Program-made: the position numbers and the translations under genes
Notes under the pieces: model-generated
What the model saw: only the letters and a program-made list of their open reading frames with translations
The model's database searches: none
Told to the model about the DNA's origin: nothing
NCBI GenBank assembly: GCA_036803205.1
Contig: DAIRUS010000001.1
Span: 20,290 to 84,289 of the forward strand
Origin: a bacterium
GTDB lineage: Bacteria > Patescibacteriota > Minisyncoccia > Minisyncoccales > GBS-2
Direction: 5' to 3'
Length of the DNA: 64,000 nucleotides
In this document: in pieces, positions 2,222-53,128 of the stretch
How positions within the stretch are numbered: the first letter of the stretch is position 1
Layout of the letters: every line of letters begins with the position of its first letter

Positions 2222-2222
2222 A

Positions 2223-4202: not shown

Positions 4203-4203
4203 A

Positions 4204-7313: not shown

Positions 7314-7323
7314 TTTTAGGAGC

Positions 7324-7458
7324 TCAAACTGTTAACCGCCAACGACCTTTCTTTTTTCGACGCAGTAAAACTTTCCTTCCACCAGAAGTAAGCTTTCTTT
7401 TTCTGAAGCCGTGAGTTTTTTTTCTTTTTCTCTTTTTCGGACGATAAGTAATTGACAT
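7324..7458 (-). CDS. rpmH: 50S ribosomal protein L34 (44 aa), absent from the ORF track because it is under 60 aa
   Basis: Manual minus-strand translation gives [44 protein letters not shown], then TGA. This is the canonical L34 sequence and C-terminus, upstream of rnpA. Confidence 0.9.
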
Positions 7459-7491
7459 ATCATCTATTTTACTCCGTCAAAATATTTAAGT

Positions 7492-7500
7492 CAATCCACA
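7492..7500. promoter_or_regulatory. weak DnaA-box-like 9-mer (CAATCCACA, 7/9 to TTATCCACA) in the AT-rich rpmH/dnaA divergent intergenic region
   Basis: Direct sequence match. The region 7459-7604 is AT-rich and lies between rpmH and dnaA. Confidence 0.3.
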
Positions 7501-7604
7501 ATTTTTACCCAGTTTATTAACAAAATTTAGCTTTTTGGCTGTCTTTACTTCTTCTTGACTTTATAATATGATATATAAAGTATTCTTAATTTGGGCTCAC
7601 TCAT

Positions 7605-8960: not shown

Positions 8961-9010
8961 AAAAAACAGTGGAAAAAAAGGGTAAAAATATTGGCCGCAA
9001 ATTTCCTAAC

Positions 9011-9043
9011 TTATCAACACTTAATTTCCTTAATTTATCCACA
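9011..9043. promoter_or_regulatory. two DnaA boxes in the dnaA-dnaN intergenic region, candidate oriC element
   Basis: TTATCAACA at 9011-9019 and perfect consensus TTATCCACA at 9035-9043, in the same orientation, within the AT-rich spacer 8961-9108. Confidence 0.7.
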
Positions 9044-9108
9044 CTTTTGTTGGTGTTAAAACAACGTATTTCTCTTAATTTTGTCAAAAACAACAACAAT
9101 TAAACTAT

Positions 9109-30802: not shown

Positions 30803-33265
30803 ATGCCATTTTTTTTCTTGAATTTGATTTTCTTTTTCTTATTTCTTTTTATACTATTTTTTATCATTTACCTCTTTTTAAGGGGTGGGAAAATAAAAGG
30901 TTTTTTTAATCGGAGTATGAACCTGGCTCTTTTTTTGGTCACTCTTCCTCAACGGATTGAAAAAGAAATTTCTTTGCCAGAACATCTCAAGCTAGCCGAA
31001 CAATTCTATGCTTCTTTAGCTGGTCTTCAAGAAAAAAATAAATTTTTAAAATTTTTAATCGGCAATCCGGTCTTAGTTTTCGAAATTGCTGTCCATCGAA
31101 TTGGAGAGGAAATTTATTTTTATGTCGCTTGCCCCCGATCGATTTCTCAGTTAATGGAGAAGCAAATTCTCGGCTTTTGGCCCAAAGCCCAAGTTCAGCC
31201 GGTTTCTGACTATAATATTTTCAATCCGGTTGGTTTTTCGGTTGGGAGCGAGGCTTTTTTGGCAAAGTCAGCTGTTTTACCATTGAAATCTTCAAAAGAT
31301 TTTGGAACCGATCCCCTTTCAGCTATCACTTCGGTTTTTACCAAATTAGCCCGCGAAGGAGAAGGAGCGGCTATTCAAATTTTATTTCGACCGAGTCAAT
31401 CTCAAATTAAGAAAATTAGTCAGAACGTGATTAATCTATTAAAAGGCGGAATGCAACTTGAAGGAGCTTTAAAAAATGCTCAGGCAGCCACCGGTATTGG
31501 CGGTTTTCTTAAAGTCCCAGGTGAAATCTTCTCAGCTAAACCTATTCAAACAACAAAAACCTCTGAGAAAACTTTTTTTCCGCCACCAATCACCGCCGAA
31601 CAACAAGAGATTATATCTACCCTTGATAAAAAATCAGCCCAACCTCTTTTTGATGTTAATCTAAGAATTTTAACCTCTGCCCTCACCGAAATCAGGGCTC
31701 AAGAAATTCTTAGCCAATTGGAGATTTCTTTTGGACAATTCAACAGCCCGGTTTTAAATCAGATTAAATTTAAAAAACTCTCAGGCCGGAGGTTAAAAGA
31801 GCTTTTTTATAATTTTTCTTTTAGAATTTTTAATGAGTCGGCAACAATGCTTCTTTCTTCAGAAGAATTAGCCAATCTTTATCATTTTCCCTCTTCAAGC
31901 TTGCTCACCCCTTACATCAAATGGTTGAAAGGCAGACAGGCTCCTCCGCCCCCAAATCTTCCCCGAGAAGGCATTATTATTGGCAAAAATGTTTTTCGCT
32001 CTGAAGAAAGGTTGGTTCCAATTTTGAGAGACGACCGACGACGTCACTTTTATATCATCGGCCAGACAGGAACGGGAAAATCAGTTTTACTCCAAGAGAT
32101 GATGAGGCAAGATATGAGGGTTGGCGAAGGCGTAGCCTTGATTGATCCCCACGGCGATTTAGCCGAAAGAGTTTTAGGATTGATTCCTTCTTCTCGGATT
32201 GAAGATGTGATCTATTTTGATCCTGGGGATATTGAAAGACCGCTTGGTTTAAATATGCTTGAATACGATATTAAATTTCCCGAATCAAAAATTTTTGTTG
32301 TCAATGAGCTTTTGGAAATTTTTGAAAAACTCTATAATCTCAAAGCCTTAGGTTTTGGGGGGCCGGTTTTCGAGCAATATATGAGAAATGCCCTTTTATT
32401 GGTAATGGAAGATCCCGAATCGGGAAACACTTTAATTGAAGTCCCAAGAGTTTTAGCTGATAAAGATTTTCGGAAATATAAACTTTCGCGCTGCCAAAAT
32501 ATAGTAGTCAAAAATTTCTGGGAGTTAGAAGCAGAAAAAGTCGGCGGAGAAGCGGCTTTAGCCAATATGGTTCCTTACCTCACCAGTAAAATGAATATTT
32601 TTATTGCCAACGATTTAGTCCGACCGATTATTGCTCAACAATCTTCTTCTTTTAATTTCCGAGAAGTAATGGATCAAGGAAAAATTTTAATTATTAACCT
32701 TTCTAAAGGCAAATTGGGTGATATAAATAGTTATCTTTTAGGAATGATTACTGTGGGTAAAATTTTAATTGCTGCTTTTTCTCGGGCCGATATTCCCGAA
32801 GAAAAGAGGCGGGATTTTTATCTTTATATTGATGAATTTCATAATGTGACCACCAGAACGATTATTTCCGCCCTAGCTGAAGCAAGAAAATATCGGCTCA
32901 ATTTAATTCTTTCCCATCAATTCATCGGGCAACTTGACGAAGAAACGAGGAAGGCTATTTTTGGCAACGTTGGTTCAATGTTAACCTTTAGATTAGGACC
33001 TGACGATGCAAAATATTTGATTACTGAGTATGAACCGGTTTTTGATGAAAATGACTTTGTTAACCTCGACAATTATAATGCCGCCCTACGCCTTCTGATT
33101 AATGGTGAAGCTTCCAAACCTTTTAACATTGTTACTTTTCCGCCGAGCAAAAGTAATCCTGAGGTTGCTAAACTTGTAAAAGAATATTCCCGTGCTAAAT
33201 ATGGTCGTGACCGTACCTTAGTAGAGTCAGATCTCTATCAGCGACTTTCAAAAAGTTATTTTTAA
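30803..33265 (+). CDS. type IV secretion coupling protein (TrwB/TraD/VirD4 family ATPase)
   Basis: N-terminal TM helices. Walker A FYIIGQTGTGKSVLLQEMM, then VALIDPHGDL (compare TrwB ...GATGTGKSVLLREL...VIVDPNGDM, recalled from memory). Walker B YLYIDEFHNV (T4CP-type DEF). LILSHQ. Confidence 0.75.
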   Translation: MPFFFLNLIFFFLFLFILFFIIYLFLRGGKIKGFFNRSMNLALFLVTLPQRIEKEISLPEHLKLAEQFYASLAGLQEKNKFLKFLIGNPVLVFEIAVHRIGEEIYFYVACPRSISQLMEKQILGFWPKAQVQPVSDYNIFNPVGFSVGSEAFLAKSAVLPLKSSKDFGTDPLSAITSVFTKLAREGEGAAIQILFRPSQSQIKKISQNVINLLKGGMQLEGALKNAQAATGIGGFLKVPGEIFSAKPIQTTKTSEKTFFPPPITAEQQEIISTLDKKSAQPLFDVNLRILTSALTEIRAQEILSQLEISFGQFNSPVLNQIKFKKLSGRRLKELFYNFSFRIFNESATMLLSSEELANLYHFPSSSLLTPYIKWLKGRQAPPPPNLPREGIIIGKNVFRSEERLVPILRDDRRRHFYIIGQTGTGKSVLLQEMMRQDMRVGEGVALIDPHGDLAERVLGLIPSSRIEDVIYFDPGDIERPLGLNMLEYDIKFPESKIFVVNELLEIFEKLYNLKALGFGGPVFEQYMRNALLLVMEDPESGNTLIEVPRVLADKDFRKYKLSRCQNIVVKNFWELEAEKVGGEAALANMVPYLTSKMNIFIANDLVRPIIAQQSSSFNFREVMDQGKILIINLSKGKLGDINSYLLGMITVGKILIAAFSRADIPEEKRRDFYLYIDEFHNVTTRTIISALAEARKYRLNLILSHQFIGQLDEETRKAIFGNVGSMLTFRLGPDDAKYLITEYEPVFDENDFVNLDNYNAALRLLINGEASKPFNIVTFPPSKSNPEVAKLVKEYSRAKYGRDRTLVESDLYQRLSKSYF

Positions 33266-39151: not shown

Positions 39152-40387
39152 ATGGAAAAAATGCCGAGATTTTTTTTAGAAAAATTAATGTCTCTTCCCC
39201 ACAGAGGAAATGCAACCCCTGAAATTGAAAAGGCGGCAGAAATTATTTTAGAAGAATACAAAAAACATAATGTTAAGGGAGAAATTTACGAATTCAAAAG
39301 TGCCGAGCAAAGCCATTATTTAATGAGTTTCATTACCACTCTTTTTATTATTGCTCTTATATTAAAACTTTTTAATAATTTTATTTTATCGCTTATTTTT
39401 TATTTTTTAGGTTGGGTTTTTTATCTTAATTGGCTTCCAATTTGGCAACGCTTTTCTCTTTTATTTCGTTCTTTTTCGGCAAAAGGGATTTTTGCTGAAG
39501 TTCCTTCTAGAGAAAAAGGAAAACATACTCTTGTTGTTAGTGCTCATTATGACACCCCACATGCAACACTTGGATTAAACATTTTACGAGCGATTAATAA
39601 AACAAATTTTGGACGAAAACTTTTTTCGCAAAATGAAAATCTCCTTTTTTTCCTTAGGGGCCCTCTTTTTCTTTTTAATATTGCTATTATATTTTTAGGA
39701 ATCATTATTTTTCTTTCTCTAAAATGGTTTTTACTTCTTTTTTTTATCCCCCTTATTTTATTTTTATTAGCCCTTTTTTTGCATTTACATATGGCTTTTT
39801 CCTCACCGGTTCCGGGAGCCTTTGATAATGGTTCCGGGACGGCCGTTGTTATGGCTTTGGCAGTTTACTTTGCTCAAAATCCTTTAAAAAATATTCGTTT
39901 AATATTTTTAACCAATCCATGCGAAGAAGGATACATTGATGGTTTTAAAGAATTTTTTAAAAAGGCAAAAATAAATAAAGAAAACACCTATTTTATAGTT
40001 CTAGACGGTGTGGGTGCAAAAAACTTAAAGATAGTTTATAAAGAGTTATCTCAGGCAATAGGAAAAACTGTTCGTTGTGACCCAATATTAAAACCATTGA
40101 TTGCTGAATTAATTGCCAGCGAAGAAAAATTTAATCAAATAAAAGAATTTTTTCTTCCGGTTCAATCTGATGCTACCAATATTTTAAAAAGAGGGGGAAA
40201 GACAGCTTTTATTTTAACTTCTATTAACGATGATGGCTTTGTTGATTTTTACCATCAACCAGAAGATACTATTGATAAAATTAATTTTAATACTCTTAAT
40301 TTATCTTATCAGTTTATGATTAAACTCCTTCAAAGGGTAAATGATTTTTTAAACTCAAAAAGCGAAAATGAAAAAAATAATTCCTAA
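39152..40387 (+). CDS. polytopic membrane protein with embedded M28-family zinc peptidase motifs
   Basis: TLVVSAHYDTPH and PGAFDNGSGTAVVMALA (M28 HxD / D-N-G-S-G signatures), interleaved with multiple hydrophobic helices. Confidence 0.55.
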   Translation: MEKMPRFFLEKLMSLPHRGNATPEIEKAAEIILEEYKKHNVKGEIYEFKSAEQSHYLMSFITTLFIIALILKLFNNFILSLIFYFLGWVFYLNWLPIWQRFSLLFRSFSAKGIFAEVPSREKGKHTLVVSAHYDTPHATLGLNILRAINKTNFGRKLFSQNENLLFFLRGPLFLFNIAIIFLGIIIFLSLKWFLLLFFIPLILFLLALFLHLHMAFSSPVPGAFDNGSGTAVVMALAVYFAQNPLKNIRLIFLTNPCEEGYIDGFKEFFKKAKINKENTYFIVLDGVGAKNLKIVYKELSQAIGKTVRCDPILKPLIAELIASEEKFNQIKEFFLPVQSDATNILKRGGKTAFILTSINDDGFVDFYHQPEDTIDKINFNTLNLSYQFMIKLLQRVNDFLNSKSENEKNNS

Positions 40388-41573
40388 TTTTTTCTTAAGT
40401 TTTTATCATTTTTCCTTAGCCTTTTTGGGAACTCTTTTTTATGGACTTCCCTCGAAAAAAATAAAGGTGATTGGAATTACTGGTACTAACGGCAAAACTA
40501 CGGTTTCTGAAATGGTAAACCAAATTTTTGAAAAAGCCGGTTTTAAAGTTGCTTTATCAAATTCTATTCGCTTTAAAATTGACAAAAGCGAATCTTTAAA
40601 CAAACTAAGAATGACAATGCCTGGTAGAGCTTTTTTACAAAAATTTTTGAGGAGGGCAATAAAAGAAAATTGTCAATACGCAATCTTAGAAGTTACCTCA
40701 GAGGGAATTAAACAATATCGGCATAAATTTATTAATTTTGAAATAGCTGTTTTTACCAATTTAAGCCCAGAACACATTGAAGCTCACGGTTCTTACGAAA
40801 AATATAGAGAAGCCAAAGGAAAACTTTTTCAAGAAACAAAAAACATTCATATTATAAACACCGACGATAAAGAAGCCAATTTTTTCCTTAAATTTCCAGC
40901 TAAAAGAAAAATTACTTTTGGCTTAGAACAAGGAGAAATCAATAATCGAGAGCTAAATTTAAAATTGAAAATCCCCGGTCAGTTTAATATTTATAATGCT
41001 TTGGCGGCAATTTCTATTGCTTACTCTCAGGGAGTAGATAAAAATTTTGCCAAAGAGGTAGTCGAAAATTTTGAAGGGGCACCCGGAAGGATGGAATTAG
41101 TTATTGCAAAACCCTTTAAGGTTTTTGTTGATTATGCTTTTACACCGGCGGCTTTAGAAAAAGTTTATCAAACTCTTATTAAACTAAATAATGAAACTCA
41201 CAAATCTCCCTCTAATTTAATTTGCGTTTTGGGTTCTTGTGGAGGGGGAAGAGATAGGTGGAAAAGGCCGGTTTTAGGGGCTTTGGCAAAAAATTATTGT
41301 CAAGAAGTAATTATTACTAACGAAGATCCTTATAATGAAGACCCAATGGAAATTATAAATCAAGTTGCTAAAGGAGTAGGCGAAAAAGCAAAAAAAATAT
41401 TAGACCGCAGGGAAGCGATTAGAGAAGCCTTAAAAATAGCAAAAGAAAATGATATTGTAATTATTACCGGTAAAGGTTGCGAGCCCTCAATTTGTATTAA
41501 AGGCAAAAAAATTCCTTGGGATGACAGAGATGTGGTAAGAGAAGAATTCAACCGATTATTTAATCAACAATAA
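40368..41573 (+). CDS. Mur ligase family protein (MurE/MurF/MurT-like)
   Basis: Central-domain P-loop IGITGTNGKTTVSEM plus Mur ligase middle and C-terminal domains. Too short (401 aa) to assign specificity. Confidence 0.65.
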   Translation: MKKIIPNFFLSFYHFSLAFLGTLFYGLPSKKIKVIGITGTNGKTTVSEMVNQIFEKAGFKVALSNSIRFKIDKSESLNKLRMTMPGRAFLQKFLRRAIKENCQYAILEVTSEGIKQYRHKFINFEIAVFTNLSPEHIEAHGSYEKYREAKGKLFQETKNIHIINTDDKEANFFLKFPAKRKITFGLEQGEINNRELNLKLKIPGQFNIYNALAAISIAYSQGVDKNFAKEVVENFEGAPGRMELVIAKPFKVFVDYAFTPAALEKVYQTLIKLNNETHKSPSNLICVLGSCGGGRDRWKRPVLGALAKNYCQEVIITNEDPYNEDPMEIINQVAKGVGEKAKKILDRREAIREALKIAKENDIVIITGKGCEPSICIKGKKIPWDDRDVVREEFNRLFNQQ

Positions 41574-41631
41574 CCTCCTGTAATATCATTGCCATGGCTT
41601 TCTTATTACAGGAGATTAGAGGAATTAAGAT

Positions 41632-42063
41632 ATGGAGAAATATGAAATTTTAGAACATAGGGCAGATCTAAAAATCAGGATTTTTGGTAAAACCAAAAAA
41701 GAATTATTTCAGAATGCCCTTTTAGGAATGAGTGAAAGTATGAAGGCCGAAATTGAAAGCCCGGCAGAAAAAGTAAAAAGAAAAGTTAGAATAGAATCGT
41801 TTGATTTGCCTTCTTTATTGGTTGATTTTTTAAGCGAGATTCTTTATTTGAGTCAGGTTAATAAAGAGGTCTATTTTGAGGTGAAGTTTAAAAAATTTTT
41901 TGTTCCGTTAACAAGCTCAAGACAGGCTGAAATAGAGTGTGAACTAATCGGTCAAAAAGTAGAGAGATTCGGCAAAGACATAAAGGCGGTGACTTATCAC
42001 GATTTGGACATTCGTCAGAGAAAAAATAAAACCTGGCAGGCAACAGTGCTTTTTGATATATAA
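41632..42063 (+). CDS. archease (RtcB activator)
   Basis: YEILEHRADLKIRIFGKTKKELFQNALLGM matches the archease N-terminus (consensus recalled: [30 protein letters not shown]). 143 aa, upstream of rtcB. Confidence 0.75.
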   Translation: MEKYEILEHRADLKIRIFGKTKKELFQNALLGMSESMKAEIESPAEKVKRKVRIESFDLPSLLVDFLSEILYLSQVNKEVYFEVKFKKFFVPLTSSRQAEIECELIGQKVERFGKDIKAVTYHDLDIRQRKNKTWQATVLFDI

Positions 42064-42192
42064 GTTGGTTTTTAGGTTTAATTTTTTCAATCTCTATTGA
42101 TTTGACTTTCCCACAGGAATACCACAAGATTTTTTAATTGGGCTAGATAAGAAAGCCTTTTCTTTTTAGAAAACTTAAGCTAAAATGGGAAT

Positions 42193-43641
42193 ATGATTTC
42201 AAAAAAAGATTTTAGAAAAATTTCAGAGTTTCTTTGGGAAATTCCAAAAACTTTTAGGGCAAATATGCGAGTTCCGGCAAGAATTTATGTTTCTGAAAAG
42301 ATGTTAGAAGAAGTATTTCGAGATCAATCGATTCCTCAATTAATCAATGGCACCACCCTTCCGGGAATAGTAAAATATGGCATTGCCATGCCTGACTGCC
42401 ATGAAGGATATAGTGTGCCTATCGGATTTGTTGGGGCATTAAGAGTTTCTGACGGAATTATTTCTCCTGGAGCAGCAGGGTTTGATTTGAATTGTGGAAT
42501 GAAACTTTTAAAATCGGAATTATCAGAAAAAGATATAAAGCCATATTTAGAGAAGCTGGCAACAGAAATTCAGAAAGAAGTACCTTCGGGACTTGGCCGA
42601 GGAGGACAAATAAAACTTTCTTTTGAGGAGATTAATAAAATTTTAGAGGGCGGAGCTCAAAAGATGGTCCAACAAGGTTTTGGCGAGAAAGAAGATATAG
42701 AAAATTGTGAATCTCATGGAAGATTAAACTGGGCCGACGCCTCAACTGTTTCTTCGCGAGCTAAAAATCGAGGAAGGGACCAGTTGGGAACCTTGGGAAG
42801 CGGAAATCATTTCCTCGAAATTCAAAAGGTGGCTGAGGTTTTTGATGAGAAAACAGCCGAAGCTTTTGGATTGTTTAAAGACCAAATTGTAACGATGATT
42901 CATACCGGTTCGCGCGGGCTCGGACATCAGGTTTGTACTGATTATTTAAGGGAATTTATTCCGGTAATGGAAAAAAAGTATAAAATCAATGTTCCTGATA
43001 GAGAATTTGCCTGTGTACCATTCAATTCGCCAGAGGGTCGAAGGTATTTTTCAGCTATGGCCTCGGCCGCCAATTATGCCTGGGCTAATCGCCAAATGAT
43101 CGCCCACTTTATTAGAAAAGCCTGGAAGTCAGTTTTGGGTGAGAAAGACAGTTATTTGGTGGCTCTTTATGATGTTGCTCACAATATTATTAAAAAGGAA
43201 AAATATATTATTGATGGTAAAGAAATTGAAGTGATTGTTCATCGTAAAGGATCCACCCGGGCTTTTCCTCCGGGCCACCCGGAAATCCCTGAAAGATATC
43301 GAAATGTCGGTCAACCAGTTTTAATTCCCGGCTCAATGGGAACTGCCTCTTACGTTCTAGTTGGAACCAGAGAAGGAGAGGAAGCTTTTTTCTCGACTTG
43401 TCATGGCGGAGGTCGGACAATGTCTCGACACGAAGCCATGAGACGAGTTTCTGGAAAAGAAGTAGTAAAAAGTTTAGAATCAAAAGGAATTATTGTTAAG
43501 TGCCGGTCTTTGAGGGGTATTGCCGAAGAGGCGCCCCTAGCATATAAAAACATTGATGAGGTAGTAGAGATAGTCCATAATGCTGGTCTATCAAAAAAAG
43601 TAGCAAAATTGATGCCATTGGCAGTAATTAAGGGAGAATAA
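42193..43641 (+). CDS. rtcB: RNA-splicing ligase RtcB
   Basis: RtcB motifs DLNCGM, GSGNHF, HRKGSTRA, plus C-terminal His/Cys metal ligands. 482 aa. Confidence 0.85.
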   Translation: MISKKDFRKISEFLWEIPKTFRANMRVPARIYVSEKMLEEVFRDQSIPQLINGTTLPGIVKYGIAMPDCHEGYSVPIGFVGALRVSDGIISPGAAGFDLNCGMKLLKSELSEKDIKPYLEKLATEIQKEVPSGLGRGGQIKLSFEEINKILEGGAQKMVQQGFGEKEDIENCESHGRLNWADASTVSSRAKNRGRDQLGTLGSGNHFLEIQKVAEVFDEKTAEAFGLFKDQIVTMIHTGSRGLGHQVCTDYLREFIPVMEKKYKINVPDREFACVPFNSPEGRRYFSAMASAANYAWANRQMIAHFIRKAWKSVLGEKDSYLVALYDVAHNIIKKEKYIIDGKEIEVIVHRKGSTRAFPPGHPEIPERYRNVGQPVLIPGSMGTASYVLVGTREGEEAFFSTCHGGGRTMSRHEAMRRVSGKEVVKSLESKGIIVKCRSLRGIAEEAPLAYKNIDEVVEIVHNAGLSKKVAKLMPLAVIKGE

Positions 43642-43860
43642 ATGGACTAAAAATTAAGGTCCAAAATGGAAAATTATAGTTTAAAATTTAAAAACTTTGA
43701 AAACCTAACAACCCCTTTTTTTCTATGGAAAGACATCGTTTGCCAAGGTCAATCAGAAAGTTTATTCGAGAGGAAAAGGCGAGAATTCGGCGAGAAGTTT
43801 TAGATTTGCAACAACAAGAAAAATTAATCACTCAGCTTTATCAAAAATTTTTCAATCAAT

Positions 43861-44808
43861 ATGCGAATAAGAGAAATATTCAATCTGGCGATTCAAAAGG
43901 GGATTGAGGCCGATTTTCGGGGGAAAAAGACCATTGAAGAGATTTTGGTCAGAAAAAGAGAAAAATATCAAAAACTTTCTGAAAAAGAAAAAGATTATTT
44001 TGACAAAGAGGCATTAAAAAATCCCTATTTAGATTCAAGGATTTTAAACATCGCTCAAGAGAAAGAAGTTAAAAAAGTTTTGGTTGGCATTGATATTGAA
44101 CCAGCCGAAATTTTAATGGCAAAAGAAATTGGCGGAATTGATTTAGTTATTTCTCATCACCCCTTAGGAAAAGGTTTAGCTAATTTACATGAAGTAATGG
44201 AGCTGCAGTGCGATATTTTGAATTTATATGGCCTGCCAATTAATGTAGCGGAAAAATTGATGAAAGAAAAAATTTCTGAAGTGGCAAGAGGAATAAACAG
44301 AGTGAACCATCAGAGAACAGTTGATGCGGCAAAAATTTTAGGATTAAATTTAATGTGTCTCCACACTGTCACCGACAATTTAGCCGCCAAATTTTTAAAA
44401 GCAAAAGTAGAGAAGGAAAATAGTTTAATGAGATTAGAAGATTTATTGGATCTTTTGAAAGAAATCCCGGAATACAAAGAAGCGGCAAAAATTGGAGCTG
44501 GCCCAAAAATTTTCGTTGGCGACAAAGAAGCAAGATGTGGCAAAATTGCGGTTACTGAAATTACTGGTGGAACCGAGGGCTCACCAAAGATTTATGAAAA
44601 AATGGCCATTGCTGGAATTGGAACCGTCATTGGAATGCATATGGAAGAAGAGCATAAAAAAGAAGCCGAAATAGCTAACATTAACGTTGTCATTGCTGGT
44701 CACATGAGTTCGGATTCTTTGGGAATGAATCTTTTTTTGGATGAATTAGAAAAGAGGGGAATTGAAATTATACCCTGCTCGGGATTAATTAGAGTCCAAC
44801 GGTTTTGA
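43861..44808 (+). CDS. Nif3/YqfO-family dinuclear-metal-centre protein
   Basis: VLVGIDIEPAEILMAKEIGGIDLVISHHPL (NIF3 HHP motif) and C-terminal IAGHMSSDSLG (GHY.SE-like). Confidence 0.55.
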   Translation: MRIREIFNLAIQKGIEADFRGKKTIEEILVRKREKYQKLSEKEKDYFDKEALKNPYLDSRILNIAQEKEVKKVLVGIDIEPAEILMAKEIGGIDLVISHHPLGKGLANLHEVMELQCDILNLYGLPINVAEKLMKEKISEVARGINRVNHQRTVDAAKILGLNLMCLHTVTDNLAAKFLKAKVEKENSLMRLEDLLDLLKEIPEYKEAAKIGAGPKIFVGDKEARCGKIAVTEITGGTEGSPKIYEKMAIAGIGTVIGMHMEEEHKKEAEIANINVVIAGHMSSDSLGMNLFLDELEKRGIEIIPCSGLIRVQRF

Positions 44809-44896
44809 TTTTCCTTAATTTTTCTGGCAAAGCAATAAATTGAGATTTTTACAAAATTAATTGGCCCAAAAGCCAGTTTTTTGATAAAATTAAAGT

Positions 44897-46039
44897 ATGC
44901 GCACAGGGATTGCCACGATTCCGTTAGATTATGGCCGTTGTCCGCGATGGCTTTTTGAGAGAATGAAGAGATTGAGTCGAAGTATTGTCATAGCTATTGT
45001 TGAAGAATTTGGGGTTGAAGAATTTTTAAAGCGTCTTTCCGATCCCATATGGTTTCAGAGTTTTGGATGCGTCCTTGGTTTTGACTGGAATAGCAGCGGT
45101 CTGGGGGTTACTACCCTAGGTGCCCTAAAAGTGGGGCTTTTTGATCTCCAAGACCGGTTGGGAATTTATGTTTGCGGTGGCAAAAGAGAATCGAGAAAGA
45201 CGCCGGAAGAGATTATTGCTTACGGAATATCGCGGGGTTTTGATTTTGCCAACAATTTAGTTTATGCCTCAAAAATGGCAGCGAAGGTTGATTCAGCTTT
45301 AATTCAGGATAATTATTCTCTTTATCATCATAATTTTATTTTTACCAAAGATGGCAAGTGGATTGTAATTCAGCAGGGAATGAATTTGGAGAACCAAACT
45401 GCCCGACGTTACCATTGGCTTTCTTCAAGTTTAAGGAGTTTTACTGAAGAACCTCACTCTGGGATTATTTCTGGCTCAAAATTAAGATTAAAACCTTTAA
45501 ATTTGGTTGCCAAAGAAAGCAAGGAAAATAAAGAAATTTCGACCGAATTAGTTAGAGAGGAGCCAAAAACATTTTTACGCGATATTAAATTAATTTCAGA
45601 AAAATCAAATACCTTAATTAAACAAAGAAGATTTGAAAATTTTGCCGAAATAGAATTAAAAAATGTTGAATTTCGTCACCATCCAGTTGAAAAAGAGAAA
45701 TTTGATTTAAGAAGATTAGAAAAAACCATTTTTGTTGCCCACGGAGAAAAACCAGAAAACTTTGAGAAGCTTTTATCTTTAAAAGGAGTAGGACCAAAAA
45801 CCATTCGAGCCCTTTCTTTAGTTAGCGAATTAATCTATGGTGCTCCACCATCTTATGAGGACCCAGCTCGTTATTCTTTCGCCGTGGGTGGGAAAGACCA
45901 TACGCCAATGCCAATTCAACGAGATGTTTATGACCAACTATTATCTATAATGGAAAAAGGAATTAAAAAAGCAAAAATTTTTCACCGAGAAAAAATAGAA
46001 GCCCAAAGGAGATTATATGGTTTGGTTAAAAATAACTAA
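44897..46039 (+). CDS. uncharacterised conserved protein (DUF763-like), with an HhH-like segment
   Basis: N-terminus ...CPRWLFERMKRLSRSIV... recalled as DUF763-like (from memory). KGVGPKTIRAL HhH. Assignment uncertain. Confidence 0.3.
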   Translation: MRTGIATIPLDYGRCPRWLFERMKRLSRSIVIAIVEEFGVEEFLKRLSDPIWFQSFGCVLGFDWNSSGLGVTTLGALKVGLFDLQDRLGIYVCGGKRESRKTPEEIIAYGISRGFDFANNLVYASKMAAKVDSALIQDNYSLYHHNFIFTKDGKWIVIQQGMNLENQTARRYHWLSSSLRSFTEEPHSGIISGSKLRLKPLNLVAKESKENKEISTELVREEPKTFLRDIKLISEKSNTLIKQRRFENFAEIELKNVEFRHHPVEKEKFDLRRLEKTIFVAHGEKPENFEKLLSLKGVGPKTIRALSLVSELIYGAPPSYEDPARYSFAVGGKDHTPMPIQRDVYDQLLSIMEKGIKKAKIFHREKIEAQRRLYGLVKNN

Positions 46040-46108
46040 TTAAAAGGTTGCAAAAATTGTTCCATTGAGTGAAAAGCCAGAAAAAATATTTTAAAGACAG
46101 AAAAAAAT

Positions 46109-46309
46109 ATGAGCAAAGAAACTCCTAAAAGAAGTCAGATTGAAATACGGAAAAAAAGAAAGAGGAAAGAAAAAATCAAAAAATTGAAGGAAAAATATTT
46201 AGTAGCTCAAACCCAAGAGGAAAAACAAAAAATAATTGAAAAAATTCTAAAAATCGCGCCTCATTATCCAATTGCGGAAATTTTGAAGTTTAATGAATCT
46301 AAAAAGTAA
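46109..46309 (+). CDS. small lysine-rich hypothetical protein (66 aa)
   Basis: ORF only. Overlaps the downstream gene start by 17 nt. Low-complexity basic sequence. Confidence 0.25.
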   Translation: MSKETPKRSQIEIRKKRKRKEKIKKLKEKYLVAQTQEEKQKIIEKILKIAPHYPIAEILKFNESKK

Positions 46310-47141
46310 GGAATTTTTGAATTTTTTTTTCATCGAAGCATTTTTATTTTCCTTAACCTTAATTGCGGGGGTTTTTTCAGCAAAAAGAATTCAAAAATTT
46401 TCTTCTTCACAAGAAATTGAGATACCTCCCGTTTCTCTTTTGTATTTTATTTTAAGCTTTGCTATTGCCACTCTCTTTATTTTTTTGCTTGTTAAATTTT
46501 TAAAGAGAAAATTACTAAAAGGAAAAATTTATAAAACCCTTTTTCTTTTCACTGTTTTTTTGAGCGGATTAACTTTTTTTGAAATTTGGTTTGGCGAACC
46601 TTTAGCTCTCTTTTTAATTTCTCTTTTAATTTTTTGGTGGGTTAAAAAACCAAATGTTTTGAATCAAGACCTTTTGATGGTTTTCGGAATAGCCGGCATT
46701 TCAAGCATTTTAGGATTGGGACTAAAACCAGAGCCAATAGTCTTTATTTTAATTTTATTTTCAATTTATGATTTTGTTGCTGTTTATAAAACGAAACATA
46801 TGGTAGAAATGGCAAAGGAAATGATAGAACAAAAAACAATTTTTGGGTTTGTCATTCCTCAAGATATTTTTTCTTTTAGAGAAAGCTTATTAAATGTTCA
46901 ACCTGGAGGTAAATTTCTTGTTCTAGGAGGAGGAGACGTTGCCCTTCCTCTTTTATTTTCGGTTTCCCTTTTGCCGAGCGGATTCTTAAATTCAATCATT
47001 GTTGCCGCCTTTTCTCTCCTCGGCCTTTTTATCAGTTTCTACATTTTTACCCATCAAAAAGTTCGCCGACCTATCCCCGCTCTTCCCCCAATTGCCTTTT
47101 TTTCAATTATTGGTTTTTTGCTCATAAGAATTTTGTGGTAA
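46293..47141 (+). CDS. presenilin / signal-peptide-peptidase-like GxGD intramembrane aspartyl protease
   Basis: Polytopic protein with motifs in order YD (FSIYDFVAVY), GxGD (LVLGGGDVALPLL), PAL (RPIPALPPIAFF), at spacings matching archaeal presenilin homologs. Confidence 0.6.
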   Translation: MNLKSKEFLNFFFIEAFLFSLTLIAGVFSAKRIQKFSSSQEIEIPPVSLLYFILSFAIATLFIFLLVKFLKRKLLKGKIYKTLFLFTVFLSGLTFFEIWFGEPLALFLISLLIFWWVKKPNVLNQDLLMVFGIAGISSILGLGLKPEPIVFILILFSIYDFVAVYKTKHMVEMAKEMIEQKTIFGFVIPQDIFSFRESLLNVQPGGKFLVLGGGDVALPLLFSVSLLPSGFLNSIIVAAFSLLGLFISFYIFTHQKVRRPIPALPPIAFFSIIGFLLIRILW

Positions 47142-47156
47142 ACTGAAATAATTTCA

Positions 47157-47516
47157 ATGTTGGATAAAAATAAAAAATATCTCCAGATTGCCTTAAATAG
47201 CACTCTTGAGGAGGTAAGAGCAGTTATTAATCAAATTCCCTTAGATGAAAGAATTATTATTGAAACAGGTCTCCCCTGATTAAAGCTCACGGCTCGATGG
47301 AAATTAGGCAAAGAATCAGAAATTCCTTTTCACGAGATTGCCAGGATTAAAAATGAATGCGATATTATGGTAGCTATTGCCGGTGGAGATACCATTCAAG
47401 AAGTTCAACAGGCAACTTTTAATGATACCGACATCGTCGTTTCCTGGAAATCTTTTTACCAAAGGACAACTGAAACCATCCAATTAACCGAGGAGTTTTT
47501 GAAAGAAATTAGATAA
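47157..47516 (+). pseudogene. 3-hexulose-6-phosphate synthase / OMP-decarboxylase-family pseudogene (in-frame TGA plus large internal deletion)
   Basis: N-terminus YLQIALNSTLEEVRAVINQIPLDERIIIETGLP*LK matches HPS LQLALD...VDIVEIGTPVIK. In-frame TGA at 47277-47279. C-terminus IARIKNECDIMVAIAGGDTIQEV...TDIVV matches the HPS C-terminal barrel strands. About 110 aa of the middle is missing. Confidence 0.6.
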
Positions 47517-47559
47517 GAGTAAATTGGAACCTTTTAATAATTCTTTTTTCTTTCAACAA

Positions 47560-48260
47560 TTAAAGATTTTATCCCCTCCAAGATTTCTACCGGCAAAGCA
47601 AAAACTATGGTCTTTGATGGGTCAGTTGAAGTTTGTCAATTGTCTGTAAAGTTCTCAAAGATAATCCACCAGGAATTACTCCTAAAATTTCAGCTGCTTT
47701 TTAAAGATTTTCAGATGCTTTCAGTTCTCCTTCTCATTTAATAATTAAGACCCTTCTTTCTCTTTCAGTTTCTGCCTGAGCAGCCATTGTTCTTTTCATT
47801 GCTGCTGGTAACTTAATGTCTTGCATTTTTATTGCCGTAACATCAATTCCCCAGGGATCAGTTTCTGTATCTACCACTTTTTTGATTTCGCTGGCAATTC
47901 TTTCTCTTTCCGTAAGCAAAGTATCAAGCTCTACTCCACCGACAATGTCTCGCATTGCTGCCAAAGCATATTGCGAGGTGGCATAAGAATAATTCTCAAT
48001 TTTTAAAATAGCATCCTCTGCCCTTATTACTCGAAAATAAACGACTGCATTTATTCCTAATGGAATATTGTCTTTTGTAATGGCCTCTTGGCGAGGAATG
48101 TCAACCGTAGTGATTCTCATGTCAACTTTTATCATTCTTTGAATGCCGGGAAAAATCTAACGGAGTCCGGAAGAACAGTTCTGCTATATTTGCCTAAAGT
48201 TAAAACCACTCCTCTTTCCTATTCATTCACTATCCGTAATCCTCGTAACCAAAAAACTAC
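47560..48260 (-). pseudogene. SPFH/band-7 (stomatin/HflK-like) pseudogene with nonsense codons and frameshifts
   Basis: The ORF at 47734-48135 encodes only the band-7 core (VDMRITTVDIPRQEAITKDNIPLGINAVVYFRV...). Homology continues upstream in another frame (ERGVVLTLGKYSRTVLPDSVRFFPAFKE, across a TAG). Downstream it continues through TGA and TAA (LIIK*EGELKASENL*KAAEILGVIPGGLSLRTLQT), then in a shifted frame (SKTIVFALPVEIL). No TM anchor is present. Confidence 0.7.
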
Positions 48261-48325
48261 CAAAAAAACTAAAAAATATACAAGAATCTTCCCCATTAAT
48301 TTATTAAATTTAAACCAATTTTAGA

Positions 48326-48353
48326 TTGCCAACCTTTTGATCATTTGTATAAT
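48326..48353 (+). promoter_or_regulatory. sigma70-like promoter upstream of the UDG gene
   Basis: -35 TTGCCA (48326-48331), 16-nt spacer, -10 TATAAT (48348-48353), 11 nt before the ATG at 48365. Confidence 0.4.
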
Positions 48354-48364
48354 ACTAACAAAAT

Positions 48365-48919
48365 ATGCTAAAAAAAGAAGCGTTAGAAAAATTAAATCAA
48401 AAAATTAGAAGTTGCCGAAAATGTCTTTTATGGAGAAAAAGAAAAAATGTTGTCCCGGGAGAAGGATCTGTTGATGGGAAATTAATGTTGATAGCTCAGG
48501 CGCCAGGTATTGAGGAAGATAAATTAGGCGGTCCCTTTGTGGGGCGAGCCGGCAAACTTTTAAATCATTTGTTAAAATTAACCGGCATTAAAAGAGAAAA
48601 AGTTTTTATTACTTCTTGTTTAAAATGTCTTCCCCAACCACCGATAAATAGAAAGCCCAAAAAAGAAGAAATTGAAAACTGCTTGCCTTATTTAAAAAAA
48701 CAAATTGAAATCATCAATCCCAAAAGATTTATTTTATTAGGCGAGGTTGCTTTTTCGGTATTTTTCCCAAATAAAAAGTTAAAAGATTTTCGAGGAAGAT
48801 GGATTAAAAAAGAGGACAAAGAATTTTTTGTTACCTACCATCCGGCGGCTGGTCTTCGCTTTCCGAAAATCAAAAAAATTTTGGAAAAAGATTTTAGAAA
48901 ATTTGTTTCTGGCCATTAA
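48365..48919 (+). CDS. uracil-DNA glycosylase, family 4
   Basis: SCRKCLLWRKRKNVVPGEGSVDGKLMLIAQAPGIEEDKLGGPFVGRAGKLL, the family-4 UDG signature (GEGP/GE.PG..ED..G.PF.G.AG). Confidence 0.8.
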   Translation: MLKKEALEKLNQKIRSCRKCLLWRKRKNVVPGEGSVDGKLMLIAQAPGIEEDKLGGPFVGRAGKLLNHLLKLTGIKREKVFITSCLKCLPQPPINRKPKKEEIENCLPYLKKQIEIINPKRFILLGEVAFSVFFPNKKLKDFRGRWIKKEDKEFFVTYHPAAGLRFPKIKKILEKDFRKFVSGH

Positions 48920-48989
48920 AATTCATTCATTTCTAAAAAAAGACCATCAACACAAGTTCTCAATCCTCTTTTTGTCGTCCAAGAACCAC

Positions 48990-49790
48990 AAAGCCCTATT
49001 CCGCCTTTAGTTAAAAAACTTAAGGCAAAATAAACTCTTTCTTTTGGCAAAAAAATTTTTTCAATTCCAATTGTTTTTTTCAATCATTTCTTTCGGCCCA
49101 CAATTTAAAATAAAATCACCTTCTTTTTTATTTCCTTTCCCAAAAATTTTAGCCCCAAAACTTTATTTATTTTTTCGTCGGCCCCTCTCTTTCTTTTTTT
49201 AAAATAGGCAAAATCCAAATTTCCTAAAAGTTTAGCCAAAGCCCCTCCTTTAGCTAAAGAACCTTTATCAGGAGCTATTACCTGCCAATCTTTTTTATTT
49301 TTAATGATTTTTTTATTGCCATTGAAAAAGGAAAATAAGCCTCAACCTCTATAAGCTTTATTCCGACTTTTTTGTAAAAATTTTTGATGTCTTTGCTATG
49401 GAGGTCGCAGGTAGTTACTTTTTTTGGTGTCAACTGCGGCCAATAATTTTACCAAAAGTTTTTCCGAGATTGGCTCTTTTTTTTCTGGAGTTGTTTTTTT
49501 ATTTTGTCTTGAGGAGGGTAAAGAAGGAAAAATTAAAATAATTTCTTTTACCCCATTTTCTCTAATGGCTTCGATAATTAAAAGAGTTTCTAAAATTGTT
49601 TTATTGGGATTTGGAGTGGTAGTTTGATAAACAAAAATTTTTTCTGGCTAACATTTTCCAAAAGTTGAACGTAAATTTTCCCACAGGCAAATTTTTTGAT
49701 GATAATTTTGCCAAATTTTAAATTTGCCAATTTAGCTAATTTTTCAGCACTCTTTTTATCAGCGCTCCCAGAAAATAAAATTTTTTCCAT
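48990..49790 (-). pseudogene. prs: ribose-phosphate pyrophosphokinase (prs) pseudogene, multiple frameshifts
   Basis: Minus-strand translations in three different frames match Prs in order. N-terminus: KILFSGSADKKSAEKLAKLANLKFGKIIIKKFACGKIYVQLLENVSQKKFLFI (residual ORF 49590-49790). Then ETLLIIEAIRENGVKEIILIFPSLPSSRQNKK, then VTTCDLHSKDIKNFY, then IAPDKGSLAKGGALAKLLGNLDFAYFKKRKRGADEKINKVLG. Low-coordinate boundary is approximate. Confidence 0.7.
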
Positions 49791-49793
49791 TTT

Positions 49794-50174
49794 CTAAACT
49801 GCTTTATTTTTGTTAACTAAATTTTCTATTGCCATTATGGCAACCTCACAATCGGTAATTAAAGGAACCCCTTTTTCTACTGCTTTTTGCCGAATTAATT
49901 TGCCATCGTTTATTTCCTTAAGGCTTTCTTTTTTTCTGCTTGGAATGTTAATAATTAAATCAAACACTCTCTTTTTTAAAAGATCAGCAATACCCAATCC
50001 TTTTTTCTTTTCTTTTTCAGACATTTTGTAGACCCGAAGGGCACGAATTCCATGTCTTTTTAAAAATTTATGAGTACCTCTTGTGGCATAGAGGACATAG
50101 TTTTGGTTTTGGGCTAATTTTTTAATTGACGGAAGCAAGAGTTTCTTATTTTCAATTCTTCCAACGGAAAGCAA
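49794..50174 (-). CDS. stand-alone MGS-like domain protein (CarB C-terminal / PurH N-terminal type fold)
   Basis: NYVLYATRGTHKFLKRHGIRALRVYK...DLIINIPSRKK...IRQKAVEKGVPLITD resembles the methylglyoxal-synthase-like domain (from memory). 126 aa, no fused catalytic domain. Confidence 0.4.
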   Translation of the reverse strand: MLSVGRIENKKLLLPSIKKLAQNQNYVLYATRGTHKFLKRHGIRALRVYKMSEKEKKKGLGIADLLKKRVFDLIINIPSRKKESLKEINDGKLIRQKAVEKGVPLITDCEVAIMAIENLVNKNKAV

Positions 50175-50177
50175 AAT

Positions 50178-51329
50178 TTATTTTGGAAAAAGAGAAAATA
50201 TAGCTGCCTTTCCATATCTTTTTTCATCCCAATCTCCAGTTTGTCTATTTAAGAGTGAAAAAATTGCCACCTTTCTTATGTCTTTTTCACCAAAAAGATA
50301 TTGAAGAAAGCGTTCATTACCAATACCATAACCAGCATGAGGGTTGGTTAGTTTGTTTTTGATGACATTGAGATACCATTCAAAATCACTGTATTCTCCA
50401 CCACGCTCCAAATGTAATTTAAACATCGTAGAGGTTAACAACCTTTCCCTAAGCTTTTCAAAGTTACACTCTCTAACTGCTGAACCTACTCCTTCTCCGG
50501 CATAAGGAAAGATTACATCAGCAGACAAAACCACTCGCGGATCTTTTGTCCAAACCTTCATATTAAAGAATTTAATTTCTTTTGGGTACTTCATAATAAA
50601 AACAGGAGACTCTTTTTTAAGAGAAGAGATTTTTTTCCTAATTGAGCCGTTATTTAAGTATTGAACAATCAGTGCCTCATGTTCAGCCTTTAAATCGTCA
50701 CCAAATTTAATCTTTGGATAACCATTTTTGTTTAATATTTTGATTGCCTCTTCGTAAGTGATTCTTAAAAATGGTCTTTCAACAGCTTCTTTTAATTTTT
50801 GAGTATTACGCCTATAAACCTTTTCTAGTATTTCTTCATAGTTTTTTAAGATATTTTTTATTGCTGATTTGATAGTAGATTCGATGTGATTTAATAAGGT
50901 TTCATACATTTTGTCTTCATCATATTTTTCCCTATTCATTCCAGCCAAGGTGCAATCAAATTCTTCTTCTGTTAGAAGAAATTGTTTTAAATGACGCTTG
51001 TCCTCTTTTTCTTCGTCTCTGCCAGAATGAATGACCGTCCAAACGCCGGGGAAAGATTGAAGCGCTTGTTCAAGATATAGTTGACCAGTTTGGGCAAAAA
51101 AAAGAGGTAAAGAAAGGCGATTATAAATTCTAAATAAAGTATCGATGTTCTCGCAGGCTCCTGTTATACCAACAATAACTGGTACATCAACGTAGGTTAA
51201 GCTTCTTTTTTGAAATTCAAAAAAACAGCCTTCTTTGAAGGCTTGGCTAATTTTTACTAAGTTGGCGAAATGTTTTTTAAACTCGATGTTAATTTCTTTA
51301 TTTTCGACGTTAAGATTAACTTGTGACAT
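50178..51329 (-). CDS. class IIb aminoacyl-tRNA-synthetase-like catalytic core without an anticodon-binding domain (archaeal-type AsnA asparagine-synthetase-like)
   Basis: Motif-2 region FAQTGQLYLEQALQSFPGVWTVIHSGRDEEKEDKRHLKQFLLTEEEF (compare SPQLYKQ...ERVFEI..FRNE...RHL.EF.MLE). Motif 3 HAGYGIGNERFLQYLFG. No N-terminal OB-fold domain. Confidence 0.45.
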   Translation of the reverse strand: MSQVNLNVENKEINIEFKKHFANLVKISQAFKEGCFFEFQKRSLTYVDVPVIVGITGACENIDTLFRIYNRLSLPLFFAQTGQLYLEQALQSFPGVWTVIHSGRDEEKEDKRHLKQFLLTEEEFDCTLAGMNREKYDEDKMYETLLNHIESTIKSAIKNILKNYEEILEKVYRRNTQKLKEAVERPFLRITYEEAIKILNKNGYPKIKFGDDLKAEHEALIVQYLNNGSIRKKISSLKKESPVFIMKYPKEIKFFNMKVWTKDPRVVLSADVIFPYAGEGVGSAVRECNFEKLRERLLTSTMFKLHLERGGEYSDFEWYLNVIKNKLTNPHAGYGIGNERFLQYLFGEKDIRKVAIFSLLNRQTGDWDEKRYGKAAIFSLFPK

Positions 51330-51508
51330 AGGAGCTAAAAATTTCTCCCCTTTGGGAGTAACAGACCTTTAATATAAGTTTTAGATTTTTCCAGCATAAA
51401 AAAAACTGCCCCTTGGGCAATTTTCTGACTTTCGGGTGCGACTTTTTCTTTTTTTGACACATTTTTAAAAATTTTACTCATCCAAGAATTTTTGTCAAGA
51501 GAAGTAAT

Positions 51509-53128
51509 TCACAGTCTTTTTGTCATGTAAGTATTTTTAAGTTTGTATCCCAATTTTCTAAAATATTCTCTTGCCCCGGTACTAGAAATTGCTACCATTT
51601 TTTTTAAGCCAAATTCTTTTTTAGTGATTTTTTCTGCTTCTTTGATTAATTTTTTTCCCAGACCCTGATGTTGGGGAGCGATTTTTTTGACTCCGATTGG
51701 CACTGACTGGCCAAAAGTTTTAATTTCTCGGATTATTGCCGACTCTTTTAATATCGGCAGAACCGATAAAAGCCGGGTTTCTCTTGAAACAAAAGAGGGG
51801 AGGCGAAGACGGATGAGGCTATAAAGCTTTGTTCTATTTTTATTTTCAAAACTGAGAAAAATTTCCTTTCCGCCAGAAGCCTCATAATCCAGGCGGAAAA
51901 AAGACAGCCTTTCTTTTGGGTCATAATTTTCTTTTACTTCTCGACACCTGATGCATTTACATTGCCATTTTTCTTTTTTTATCTCTTTAGCCAAAATTTG
52001 TCGGATGTTAGAAATTTTTGCTCCACCAGCAATGATTTTTTGAGATGGGATATCTCTAGCAATTCTTTGGATTCTGACATAATAAGGAATTTTCTTTTTG
52101 ATTTTTTTTATAAGCTTGAATAAAGTTTTTTTAGAATAAGGCTTATATTTCCCAGTTTGCCACCACTGATAGAGCGGCGCTTCTTTTAATAAAGCGCAGG
52201 GATAGATTTTTAAATAATCTGGCTGAAAATCAGGATTTTGAAATAATTCCTCAAACATTTTTTCATCTTTTTTTACATTGGAGCCCGGCAAATTCGGCAT
52301 TATTTGATACAAAACCTTAAAACCGGCATCTTTTAAAAATTTGGTTGCCAAAATTGTTTCTTTTACGCCGTGTCCTCGTAAATTTAATTTTAAAACATCA
52401 TCATAAATCGACTGAACCCCCAATTCAACCATAGTTATTCCTAATTTCCTCAACCATAAAATTTCTTTTTCGTTTATAAAATCAGGCCTAGTTTCAATAG
52501 ATAATCCAACAATTCTATGCCTTGCCTTTTCATTTAATTTTTGCGCCCTCTCTAATTCCTGTAAAACAAATGCCATGGCATTTATTTTACAGTTGGATGG
52601 ATTTTTGTTGTTGCAGGCTTGGAAACACCTTTTAATAAACCAGGCTTGATATTTTTTGGGATAATAACTCCAGGTTCCACCGACTATTCTCAATTCAATT
52701 TTATCAGTGGGATGTCCTTCATTTTCTAGCGTTTCAATTCTTTTTTTCACTTGTAGATAAGGGTCGTAATTTAATCTTTTTGCCCTTTCGACGGCTGGCT
52801 CTCCAGAAAGATAGCTTTTGGGAATACCTTTTTCAATTGGACAATAAAGACATTTGCCAGGACAGAGATAGGGCTTGGTTAAAACCGAGACATTAACAAT
52901 TCCAGAAAGAGAACGAATTGGTCGCGTTTTAAGTAACCTTTCAATTCTTTCAGATTTTTTAATTCTTTTCTTTCTGAGTAATTTCTGATAAACTCTTAAT
53001 AGCTCGATATTGCTTGGGCAAGAGATTTTATATTTTTTTGTTACTTCTCTCTTTAAAAAATCCAAATCAACCTCATTTTTTATTCGGCTTTTAATTAATT
53101 CGCTGATTACAAGTTCATTAACATTCAT
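51509..53128 (-). CDS. elp3: Elp3-type radical-SAM/GNAT protein (tRNA wobble-uridine carboxymethyl modification enzyme homolog)
   Basis: Radical-SAM cysteine cluster LCPGKCLYCP. Elp3-like core. C-terminal GNAT motif QHQGLGKKLIKEAEKI. 539 aa. Confidence 0.75.
   Translation of the reverse strand: MNVNELVISELIKSRIKNEVDLDFLKREVTKKYKISCPSNIELLRVYQKLLRKKRIKKSERIERLLKTRPIRSLSGIVNVSVLTKPYLCPGKCLYCPIEKGIPKSYLSGEPAVERAKRLNYDPYLQVKKRIETLENEGHPTDKIELRIVGGTWSYYPKKYQAWFIKRCFQACNNKNPSNCKINAMAFVLQELERAQKLNEKARHRIVGLSIETRPDFINEKEILWLRKLGITMVELGVQSIYDDVLKLNLRGHGVKETILATKFLKDAGFKVLYQIMPNLPGSNVKKDEKMFEELFQNPDFQPDYLKIYPCALLKEAPLYQWWQTGKYKPYSKKTLFKLIKKIKKKIPYYVRIQRIARDIPSQKIIAGGAKISNIRQILAKEIKKEKWQCKCIRCREVKENYDPKERLSFFRLDYEASGGKEIFLSFENKNRTKLYSLIRLRLPSFVSRETRLLSVLPILKESAIIREIKTFGQSVPIGVKKIAPQHQGLGKKLIKEAEKITKKEFGLKKMVAISSTGAREYFRKLGYKLKNTYMTKRL

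Follow-up and report, generated by a model that had tools for sequence, protein, structure and literature searches.

The window, that is, the whole 64-kb stretch of DNA that was analysed, has a GC content of about 34%. Roughly in its third quarter lies a gene for a polytopic membrane protein with the motifs of presenilin-type proteases. This gene and its direct surroundings are organized as follows:

43861-44808, plus strand: Nif3/DUF34-like gene, which directly abuts or overlaps the protease gene in many relatives.
44897-46039, plus strand: DUF763 gene, upstream of the protease gene and part of a conserved block (profile match, synteny).
46109-46309, plus strand: DUF6800 gene, encoding a Lys-rich protein of 66 aa with no TM helix; it overlaps the start of the protease gene by 17 nt.
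46293-47141, plus strand: intact gene of a PF06550 presenilin/PSH-type intramembrane aspartyl protease of 282 aa with nine TM helices (profiles, PDB match, model).
47157-47516, plus strand: decayed gene on the downstream side of the protease, of whose 218 aa only the N- and C-terminal pieces are left.
47543-48287, minus strand: stomatin-like pseudogene (SPFH/Band_7), disrupted by frameshifts and in-frame stops.

The protease ORF (46293-47141, plus strand) begins with an ATG, and this start codon is backed by homologues that share the initial MNLK(S/N)KE. The hydropathy of its product is that of a polytopic protein.

The host is a CPR-like bacterium, as had been supposed in the first-pass annotation. 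The contig carries bacterial genes and the relatives of the protease are found in Patescibacteria. Profile searches of the window matched DnaA (539 bits), UvrB (969 bits), a PBP1A-family protein and a bacterial TyrS, and a PilB/GspE ATPase, a histidine kinase, MurE, RuvC, YebC and TsaE are encoded as well. The chromosomal origin can also be located:

5747-10233: chromosomal origin region, with dnaA (7605-8960) confirmed by profile search.

Ahead of dnaA come three minus-strand ORFs, of which the first is small and the second codes for a YidC-like membrane protein; their layout resembles rnpA-yidC-jag. A DnaN-sized ORF (9109-10233) comes after dnaA; the YidC-like and DnaN names are given from position and sequence pattern only. 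At 1163-4202 and 30803-33265, two large T4SS_pilin-domain membrane proteins and an 820-aa VirD4/TraD-like coupling protein are encoded, which suggests a type IV secretion or conjugation-like apparatus. On the minus strand, at 50178-51329, lies the gene for a class II aaRS-like protein of 383 aa. Its match to AsnRS is restricted to the catalytic core (profile positions 132-448), asparagine synthetase A models match it weakly, and the N-terminal anticodon-binding domain is apparently absent.

The family assignment of the protease is carried by profile and sequence searches. Pfam PF06550 ("Signal-peptide peptidase, presenilin aspartyl protease", cutoff 23.9 bits) aligns with it over profile positions 29-276 of 283 at a score of 83.3 bits (E 2.8e-23), and the same profile is matched by all 17 relatives tested. 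In a phmmer search of all PDB sequences, PSH, the presenilin homologue of the archaeon Methanoculleus, was the sole protein matched (4hyc, 4hyd, 4hyg, 4y6k; E 1.3e-14). The initial assignment to the presenilin/SPP-type GxGD proteases is therefore borne out by the Pfam score and the PDB match, and also by a fold search that returned presenilin-family structures only. A match to an A22 profile had been proposed as a check, and this was obtained with PF06550 but not with Peptidase_A22B (PF04258), one of the two profile names that had been given. Neither PF04258 (SPP) nor PF01080 (presenilin) matched the protease at E<=1; among the 17 relatives, PF01080 was marginal in three (E 0.042 at best) and PF04258 matched none. 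Against NF041679, the NCBIfam equivalog model of archaeal PSH, the protein scores 88 bits (E 7.4e-25) and so falls short of the 125 bits set for equivalogs; functional equivalence with PSH does not follow from this score. Judged by these scores, family membership is far beyond a chance pattern, and the protein is best filed in PF06550/MEROPS A22 as a related but separate subfamily, not as an archaeal PSH equivalog.

The elements expected of such a protease are all present in the gene:

46767-46772, plus strand: YD motif (Y159-D160) in TM6; D160, which is invariant in 81/81 members, corresponds to PSH D162.
46788-46832, plus strand: amphipathic helix TM6a, KTKHMVEMAKEMIEQ, residues 166-180; the most conserved stretch of the family, with TKHM common to PSH.
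46926-46937, plus strand: GxGD motif where TM7 starts (G212-G-G-D215); its D215 is the counterpart of PSH D220.
47076-47084, plus strand: PAL motif directly ahead of TM9 (P262-A263-L264, then P265), placed by residue positions and the alignment of relatives.

The first reading of the sequence had placed YD at about residue 158 and PAL at about 262, which is right, but its position for GGGD (about 205) was off by seven residues, the motif being found at 212-215. The phmmer alignment and a BLASTP comparison to full-length PSH agree that the PSH catalytic pair, D162 in TM6 and D220 in TM7, corresponds to D160 and D215. In all 81 family members, Y159, D160, V164, K166, T167, H169, M170, G212, G214, D215, P219, L264 and P265 are invariant; the loci were retrieved through one of two peptide patterns, so part of this invariance is ascertainment, while the PAL region played no role in the retrieval. 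Y159, D160, G212, G214, D215, L264 and P265 are also invariant across the CPR and Methanomicrobiales sequences taken together. The other two PAL residues are slightly more variable (P262 kept in 73/81, A263 in 76/81). Two features distinguish the groups. The x of GxGD is Gly in 59/81 members of the CPR clade and Ser, Thr or Ala in the rest, versus Met or Leu in the Methanomicrobiales, and the motif before TM9 reads PALP in the former and AGLP in the latter. That the catalytic Asp residues, the GxGD glycines and the PAL leucine-proline stay invariant over 26-83% identity is the pattern expected from selection on catalysis.

The structure was modelled with AlphaFold. The model built from 50 sequences, archaeal PSHs included, is confident (pLDDT 93.7, pTM 0.91) and has nine TM helices, whereas an earlier one from 17 close relatives reached a pLDDT of 72, with values below 50 around the YD motif. 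After TM6 the model contains a short helix (169-179), which would be the counterpart of TMD6a in PSH, and two short strands are formed by residues 185-188 and 209-212, the latter immediately ahead of GGGD. A Foldseek search of the PDB gave 16 matches at E<=1e-3, all of them presenilin-family structures (PSH, human SPPL2a and the PS1 of gamma-secretase) and none a prepilin peptidase. The best TM-score was 0.72, to PSH, and the lowest RMSD 3.9 A, to Notch-bound PS1 (6idf_B).

TM6 ends on the cytoplasmic side seven residues after D160, and TM7 has D215 as its third residue. Both aspartates are thus near the same, cytoplasmic face and in adjacent helices, not on opposite faces, in line with the arrangement that the first-pass annotation had singled out as its topology check. 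The orientation itself can be predicted from the charges of the loops. Lys and Arg add up to 21.1 on the face that holds the N-terminus and the TM6-7 loop, versus 2.8 on the opposite one, and this N-in bias recurs in 81/81 family members. The Methanomicrobiales PSH rows have the same N-in orientation (15/15). By the positive-inside rule only, the topology is predicted to be N-in/C-out with a cytoplasmic TM6-7 loop, as in presenilin.

The family had been introduced as a mainly archaeal and eukaryotic one, and the implied rarity of a bacterial member does not hold. Among the 600 pattern matches listed for one-genome-per-species GTDB contigs, at least 567 species-representative genomes carry a relative. 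The best 80 of these relatives are all from Patescibacteria, under the names of Nealson-, Staskawicz-, Yanofsky-, Azam-, Falkow-, Uhr- and Buchananbacteria, Paceibacterales, Parcubacteria and placeholders. Three loci (L065, L074 and L078) are labelled "uncultured Gammaproteobacteria bacterium". They are syntenic with the loci of Uhr-, Falkow- and Buchananbacteria, and their neighbour proteins are 60-87% identical to the counterparts there, so these labels look wrong or like placeholders as far as the sequences tell. Many of the "uncultured Candidatus Saccharibacteria" labels in the same MAG series are probably generic too. In a database clustered at 90% identity at least 1159 relatives were found, the best 120 of which have 52-65% identity and all match PF06550. 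A profile search of 1.84 billion representatives at 50% identity yielded 1464 matches at E<=1e-3, 890 at E<=1e-10 and 251 at E<=1e-30. No protease homologue was detected in a scan of viral contigs. Such proteins are already named "presenilin family intramembrane aspartyl protease" by NCBI, and some relatives bear the JGI label "presenilin-like A22 family membrane protease". The gene is routinely annotated and belongs, as an ordinary member, to a bacterial branch that has been studied little; it is no one-off oddity.

Within the CPR set, pairwise identity ranges from 26 to 83% (mean 42%), and between the CPR proteins and the PSHs of the Methanomicrobiales from 18 to 30% (mean 24%). The two groups fall cleanly apart in a midpoint-rooted NJ tree, which, as the best 120 matches of the search with PSH as query were all from Methanomicrobiales, compares the CPR with one archaeal order and is silent on the direction of any transfer. 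From the spread of identities and the clean split, the CPR branch appears to be old and diverse. In one locus, that of Candidatus Staskawiczbacteria RIFOXYC1_FULL_38_18 (L038, 3950-4834), the homologue is divided between two ORFs (3950-4399 and 4418-4834), either by a frameshift or stop codon or through an error in sequencing.

The surroundings of the gene are conserved as well. A block of MurE - (archease) - RtcB - Nif3/DUF34-like - (DUF763) - protease - variable slot - Elp3, the last on the opposite strand, is recurrent in the 80 genome loci, and its core of MurE, RtcB, Nif3, PSH and Elp3 is found in dozens of Patescibacteria genomes. The variable slot after the protease is taken by a family 4 UDG, by a paralogous pair of genes for about 220-260 aa, or by SPFH. 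In Uhrbacteria-like loci the order is changed to protease - archease - RtcB. The protease gene often abuts its upstream neighbour or overlaps it by 0-4 nt. Across the 80 genome loci, no conserved adjacent partner or candidate substrate protein was found, and the immediate neighbours vary. Since no plausible membrane-protein substrate or cofactor stands among these varying neighbours, the arrangement is read as inherited synteny in streamlined genomes and not as a functional module. A scan for promoters and terminators gave a result no better than that for shuffled sequence.

Several genes around the protease have archaeal affinity. In the window (40368-53128) and in loci L002-L069 these are archease, RtcB, the Nif3/DUF34-like gene, DUF763, family 4 UDG (with "Arch_udg" as its best NCBIfam match) and Elp3, and they are flanked by the bacterial murE. 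The block could be an old archaeal-derived island. The RtcB of the window (482 aa) scores highest with an "intein-containing RtcB" model, and in the complete Nealsonbacteria genome CP179887.1 (L005, 37-2472) the RtcB ORF extends to about 811 aa, where it probably carries an intein.

DUF6800, the direct upstream neighbour in the window, is a small soluble protein (63-69 aa, Lys-rich) with 58-71% identity among L001, L003, L005, L014, L063, L084, L086 and L087. It stands beside the protease in 5/80 genome loci, all of them among the closest relatives, and in three of five metagenome loci; in the closest relatives the two genes abut or overlap. In the other two metagenome loci, one contig ends before the position of the protease and the other (L083) has DUF6800 beside UDG. 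In L087 the DUF6800 gene is found downstream of the protease gene. DUF6800 is a possible lineage-specific partner of the protease.

Downstream of the protease, gene decay prevails. The two small ORFs at 47157-47516 correspond to the N-terminal 47 aa or so and the C-terminal 70 aa or so of a gene from which the middle has been deleted. This 218-aa gene is intact and duplicated in the related locus L001 (2283-3074 and 3071-3727), and its N-terminus presumably resembles the hexulose-phosphate synthase/OMP decarboxylase family. The SPFH pseudogene still has 70% identity with its intact orthologue of 260 aa in L001, but its coding sequence is scattered across three frames and contains several in-frame stops besides at least two frameshifts. 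In the independent assemblies L081 and L082, SPFH is truncated in the same way. The protease has thus remained intact while both genes immediately downstream have decayed, which is counted as evidence of selection on the protease.

Taken together, the protein is probably (at roughly 80%) a presenilin/PSH-type aspartyl protease that is catalytically competent, acts on its own and cleaves within the membrane, as judged from sequence, model and analogy with its characterized relatives. In the proposed mechanism, D160 and D215 would face each other a few residues inside the cytoplasmic surface. The two aspartates would activate a water molecule, by which a peptide bond within the TM helix of the substrate is hydrolysed. 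Docking of the substrate may involve PAL(P), TM6a and the strands 185-188 and 209-212, as it does in PSH and presenilin-1. For PSH, it was shown that its activity requires TMD6a and that it cleaves APP C99 without partner proteins (PMC9282858). By analogy with PSH, the CPR enzyme may also act without partners.

The choice of substrates would follow from the orientation in the membrane. Eukaryotic presenilin, which is N-in, cuts N-out/C-in substrates, and SPP, which is inverted, cuts N-in/C-out substrates. When this rule, which was derived from eukaryotic presenilin versus SPP, is applied to the prokaryotic protein, its N-in orientation favours N-out/C-in substrates over prepilins, which are N-in/C-out. 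The preferred substrates would then be N-out/C-in single-pass TM stubs, for example the anchors left behind by ectodomain removal; stubs that remain after shedding or sortase-type processing are one speculative possibility. Cleavage of signal peptides or prepilins would be less likely. Type IV-pilin-like proteins, which had been suggested as substrates at the outset, therefore find no support, given the lack of an A24 match and the N-in orientation in 81/81 members, while the accompanying suggestion of other single-pass substrates is plausible.

The alternative that survives best, although it is unlikely, is that of a signal-peptide peptidase, which would clear N-in/C-out signal peptides after secretion and replace SppA or RseP in a reduced genome. 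PF06550 bears the name of such an enzyme, some archaeal members are annotated accordingly and match PF04258 too, and a housekeeping role would suit the wide and syntenic distribution in streamlined genomes. Eukaryotic SPPs, however, are oriented opposite to presenilin, which matches their N-in substrates, whereas all 81 members of the family are predicted to be N-in, and the CPR proteins give no PF04258 match.

A role as prepilin-type peptidase, processing type IV pilin-like proteins, is very improbable. The window does encode a PilB/GspE-type ATPase, no A24/PilD gene was found within its 64 kb (the rest of the genome could carry one), and we take the GGGDV of the protease to resemble the local motif of prepilin peptidases. 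Yet the A24 profile does not match the protease or 16 relatives at E<=1, the fold matches are confined to presenilin-family structures, and YD and PAL are features of family A22. An N-in active site would also be wrongly directed for N-in/C-out prepilins by the presenilin-versus-SPP rule.

It is hardly to be expected that the protein is non-proteolytic in vivo and serves as a cation-leak channel, a scaffold or a pseudoenzyme. Ion-channel activity was reported for presenilins and PSH, and this speaks for such a role; against it stands the invariance of both Asp residues, the GxGD glycines and the PAL leucine-proline in 81/81 members across 26-83% identity. That the gene is archaeal DNA misassembled or misbinned into a bacterial genome has next to no probability, and in spite of the family being best known from archaea and of the archaeal-flavoured neighbours (RtcB, archease, Elp3, DUF763, family 4 UDG) it is refuted by the contig shared with dnaA, tyrS, PBP1A, uvrB, murE, ruvC and tsaE, by the independent assembly of the locus in other datasets and by the conserved synteny with murE in many genomes.

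The reading as a presenilin/PSH-type protease bears on how the family is seen. Its history is usually told as that of a eukaryotic family with archaeal ancestors, whereas here it is common, conserved and apparently under selection in a large bacterial radiation. Ancestral precursors of presenilin were described in several archaea (PMC9282858), and current reviews mention archaeal ancestors only. A literature search returned no paper that links presenilin to Patescibacteria, CPR or Parcubacteria, nor PF06550 in that context; the dedicated phylogeny (Raut, Glass and Lieberman 2021, Proteins 89:232) was outside its scope. As annotation pipelines already name the gene, its presence is not in itself a discovery. 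The CPR members do add small, presumably cofactor-free homologues of presenilin to those available for studies of structure and mechanism, and they raise a concrete question, namely which bacterial membrane proteins are cut by an aspartyl protease inside the bilayer.

The family also lends itself to testing whether genes have moved between archaea and CPR. In several papers, Paceibacteria and Nealsonbacteria were described as ectosymbionts of methanogens, which makes a transfer from archaea to CPR plausible. A broader scenario can be drawn from all of this, and it is offered tentatively, as the less probable side of the matter. The Patescibacteria (at least Parcubacteria/Paceibacteria and ABY1-like members) would own an old presenilin branch, marked by a small residue in GxGD and by PALP and embedded in an archaeal-flavoured block. 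Either it would stem from an ancient archaeal transfer into methanogen-attached bacteria, or the family would be older than the account of its "archaeal roots" allows. Its members would clear N-out/C-in stubs in a cofactor-free, gamma-secretase-like manner. If an old CPR branch with cofactor-free clearing of stubs is indeed at hand, it would be the first presenilin system from bacteria and would offer a new minimal model.

Among known systems, the closest protein is PSH/MCMJR1 from Methanoculleus marisnigri (4hyg, 4hyc, 4hyd, 4y6k; PF06550; A22). Both have nine TM helices and a similar length (282 aa here, 301 aa in PSH), with YD in TM6 and GxGD in TM7 aligned. They also have in common the TKHM/TM6a segment, the predicted N-in orientation and the lack of a conserved partner gene. 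Unlike PSH, the protein described here has a bacterial host and scores under the NF041679 cutoff, and the identity between the two is only about 24-26%. They further differ in the x of GxGD (G/S/T/A here, M/L in PSH) and in the motif before TM9 (PALP here, AGLP in PSH).

The same fold is seen in presenilin-1 of human gamma-secretase (TM-score up to 0.71, RMSD of 3.9 A to the substrate-bound 6idf_B), which is likewise N-in and has the three motifs YD, GxGD and PALP. In contrast to presenilin-1, to which the identity is 14-16%, the TM6-7 loop is short, partners such as nicastrin, APH-1 and PEN-2 are absent, and autoproteolytic activation would not be expected. SPP and SPPL2a (PF04258) resemble the protease in fold (9k92, TM-score 0.63-0.65), in the catalytic motifs and in being stand-alone enzymes, but the CPR proteins do not match PF04258 and their predicted orientation is opposite. 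PilD and FlaK (A24) are, like the protease, prokaryotic GxGD-type di-aspartyl membrane proteases. They belong to another family with another fold, however, and the A24 enzymes have neither YD nor PAL.
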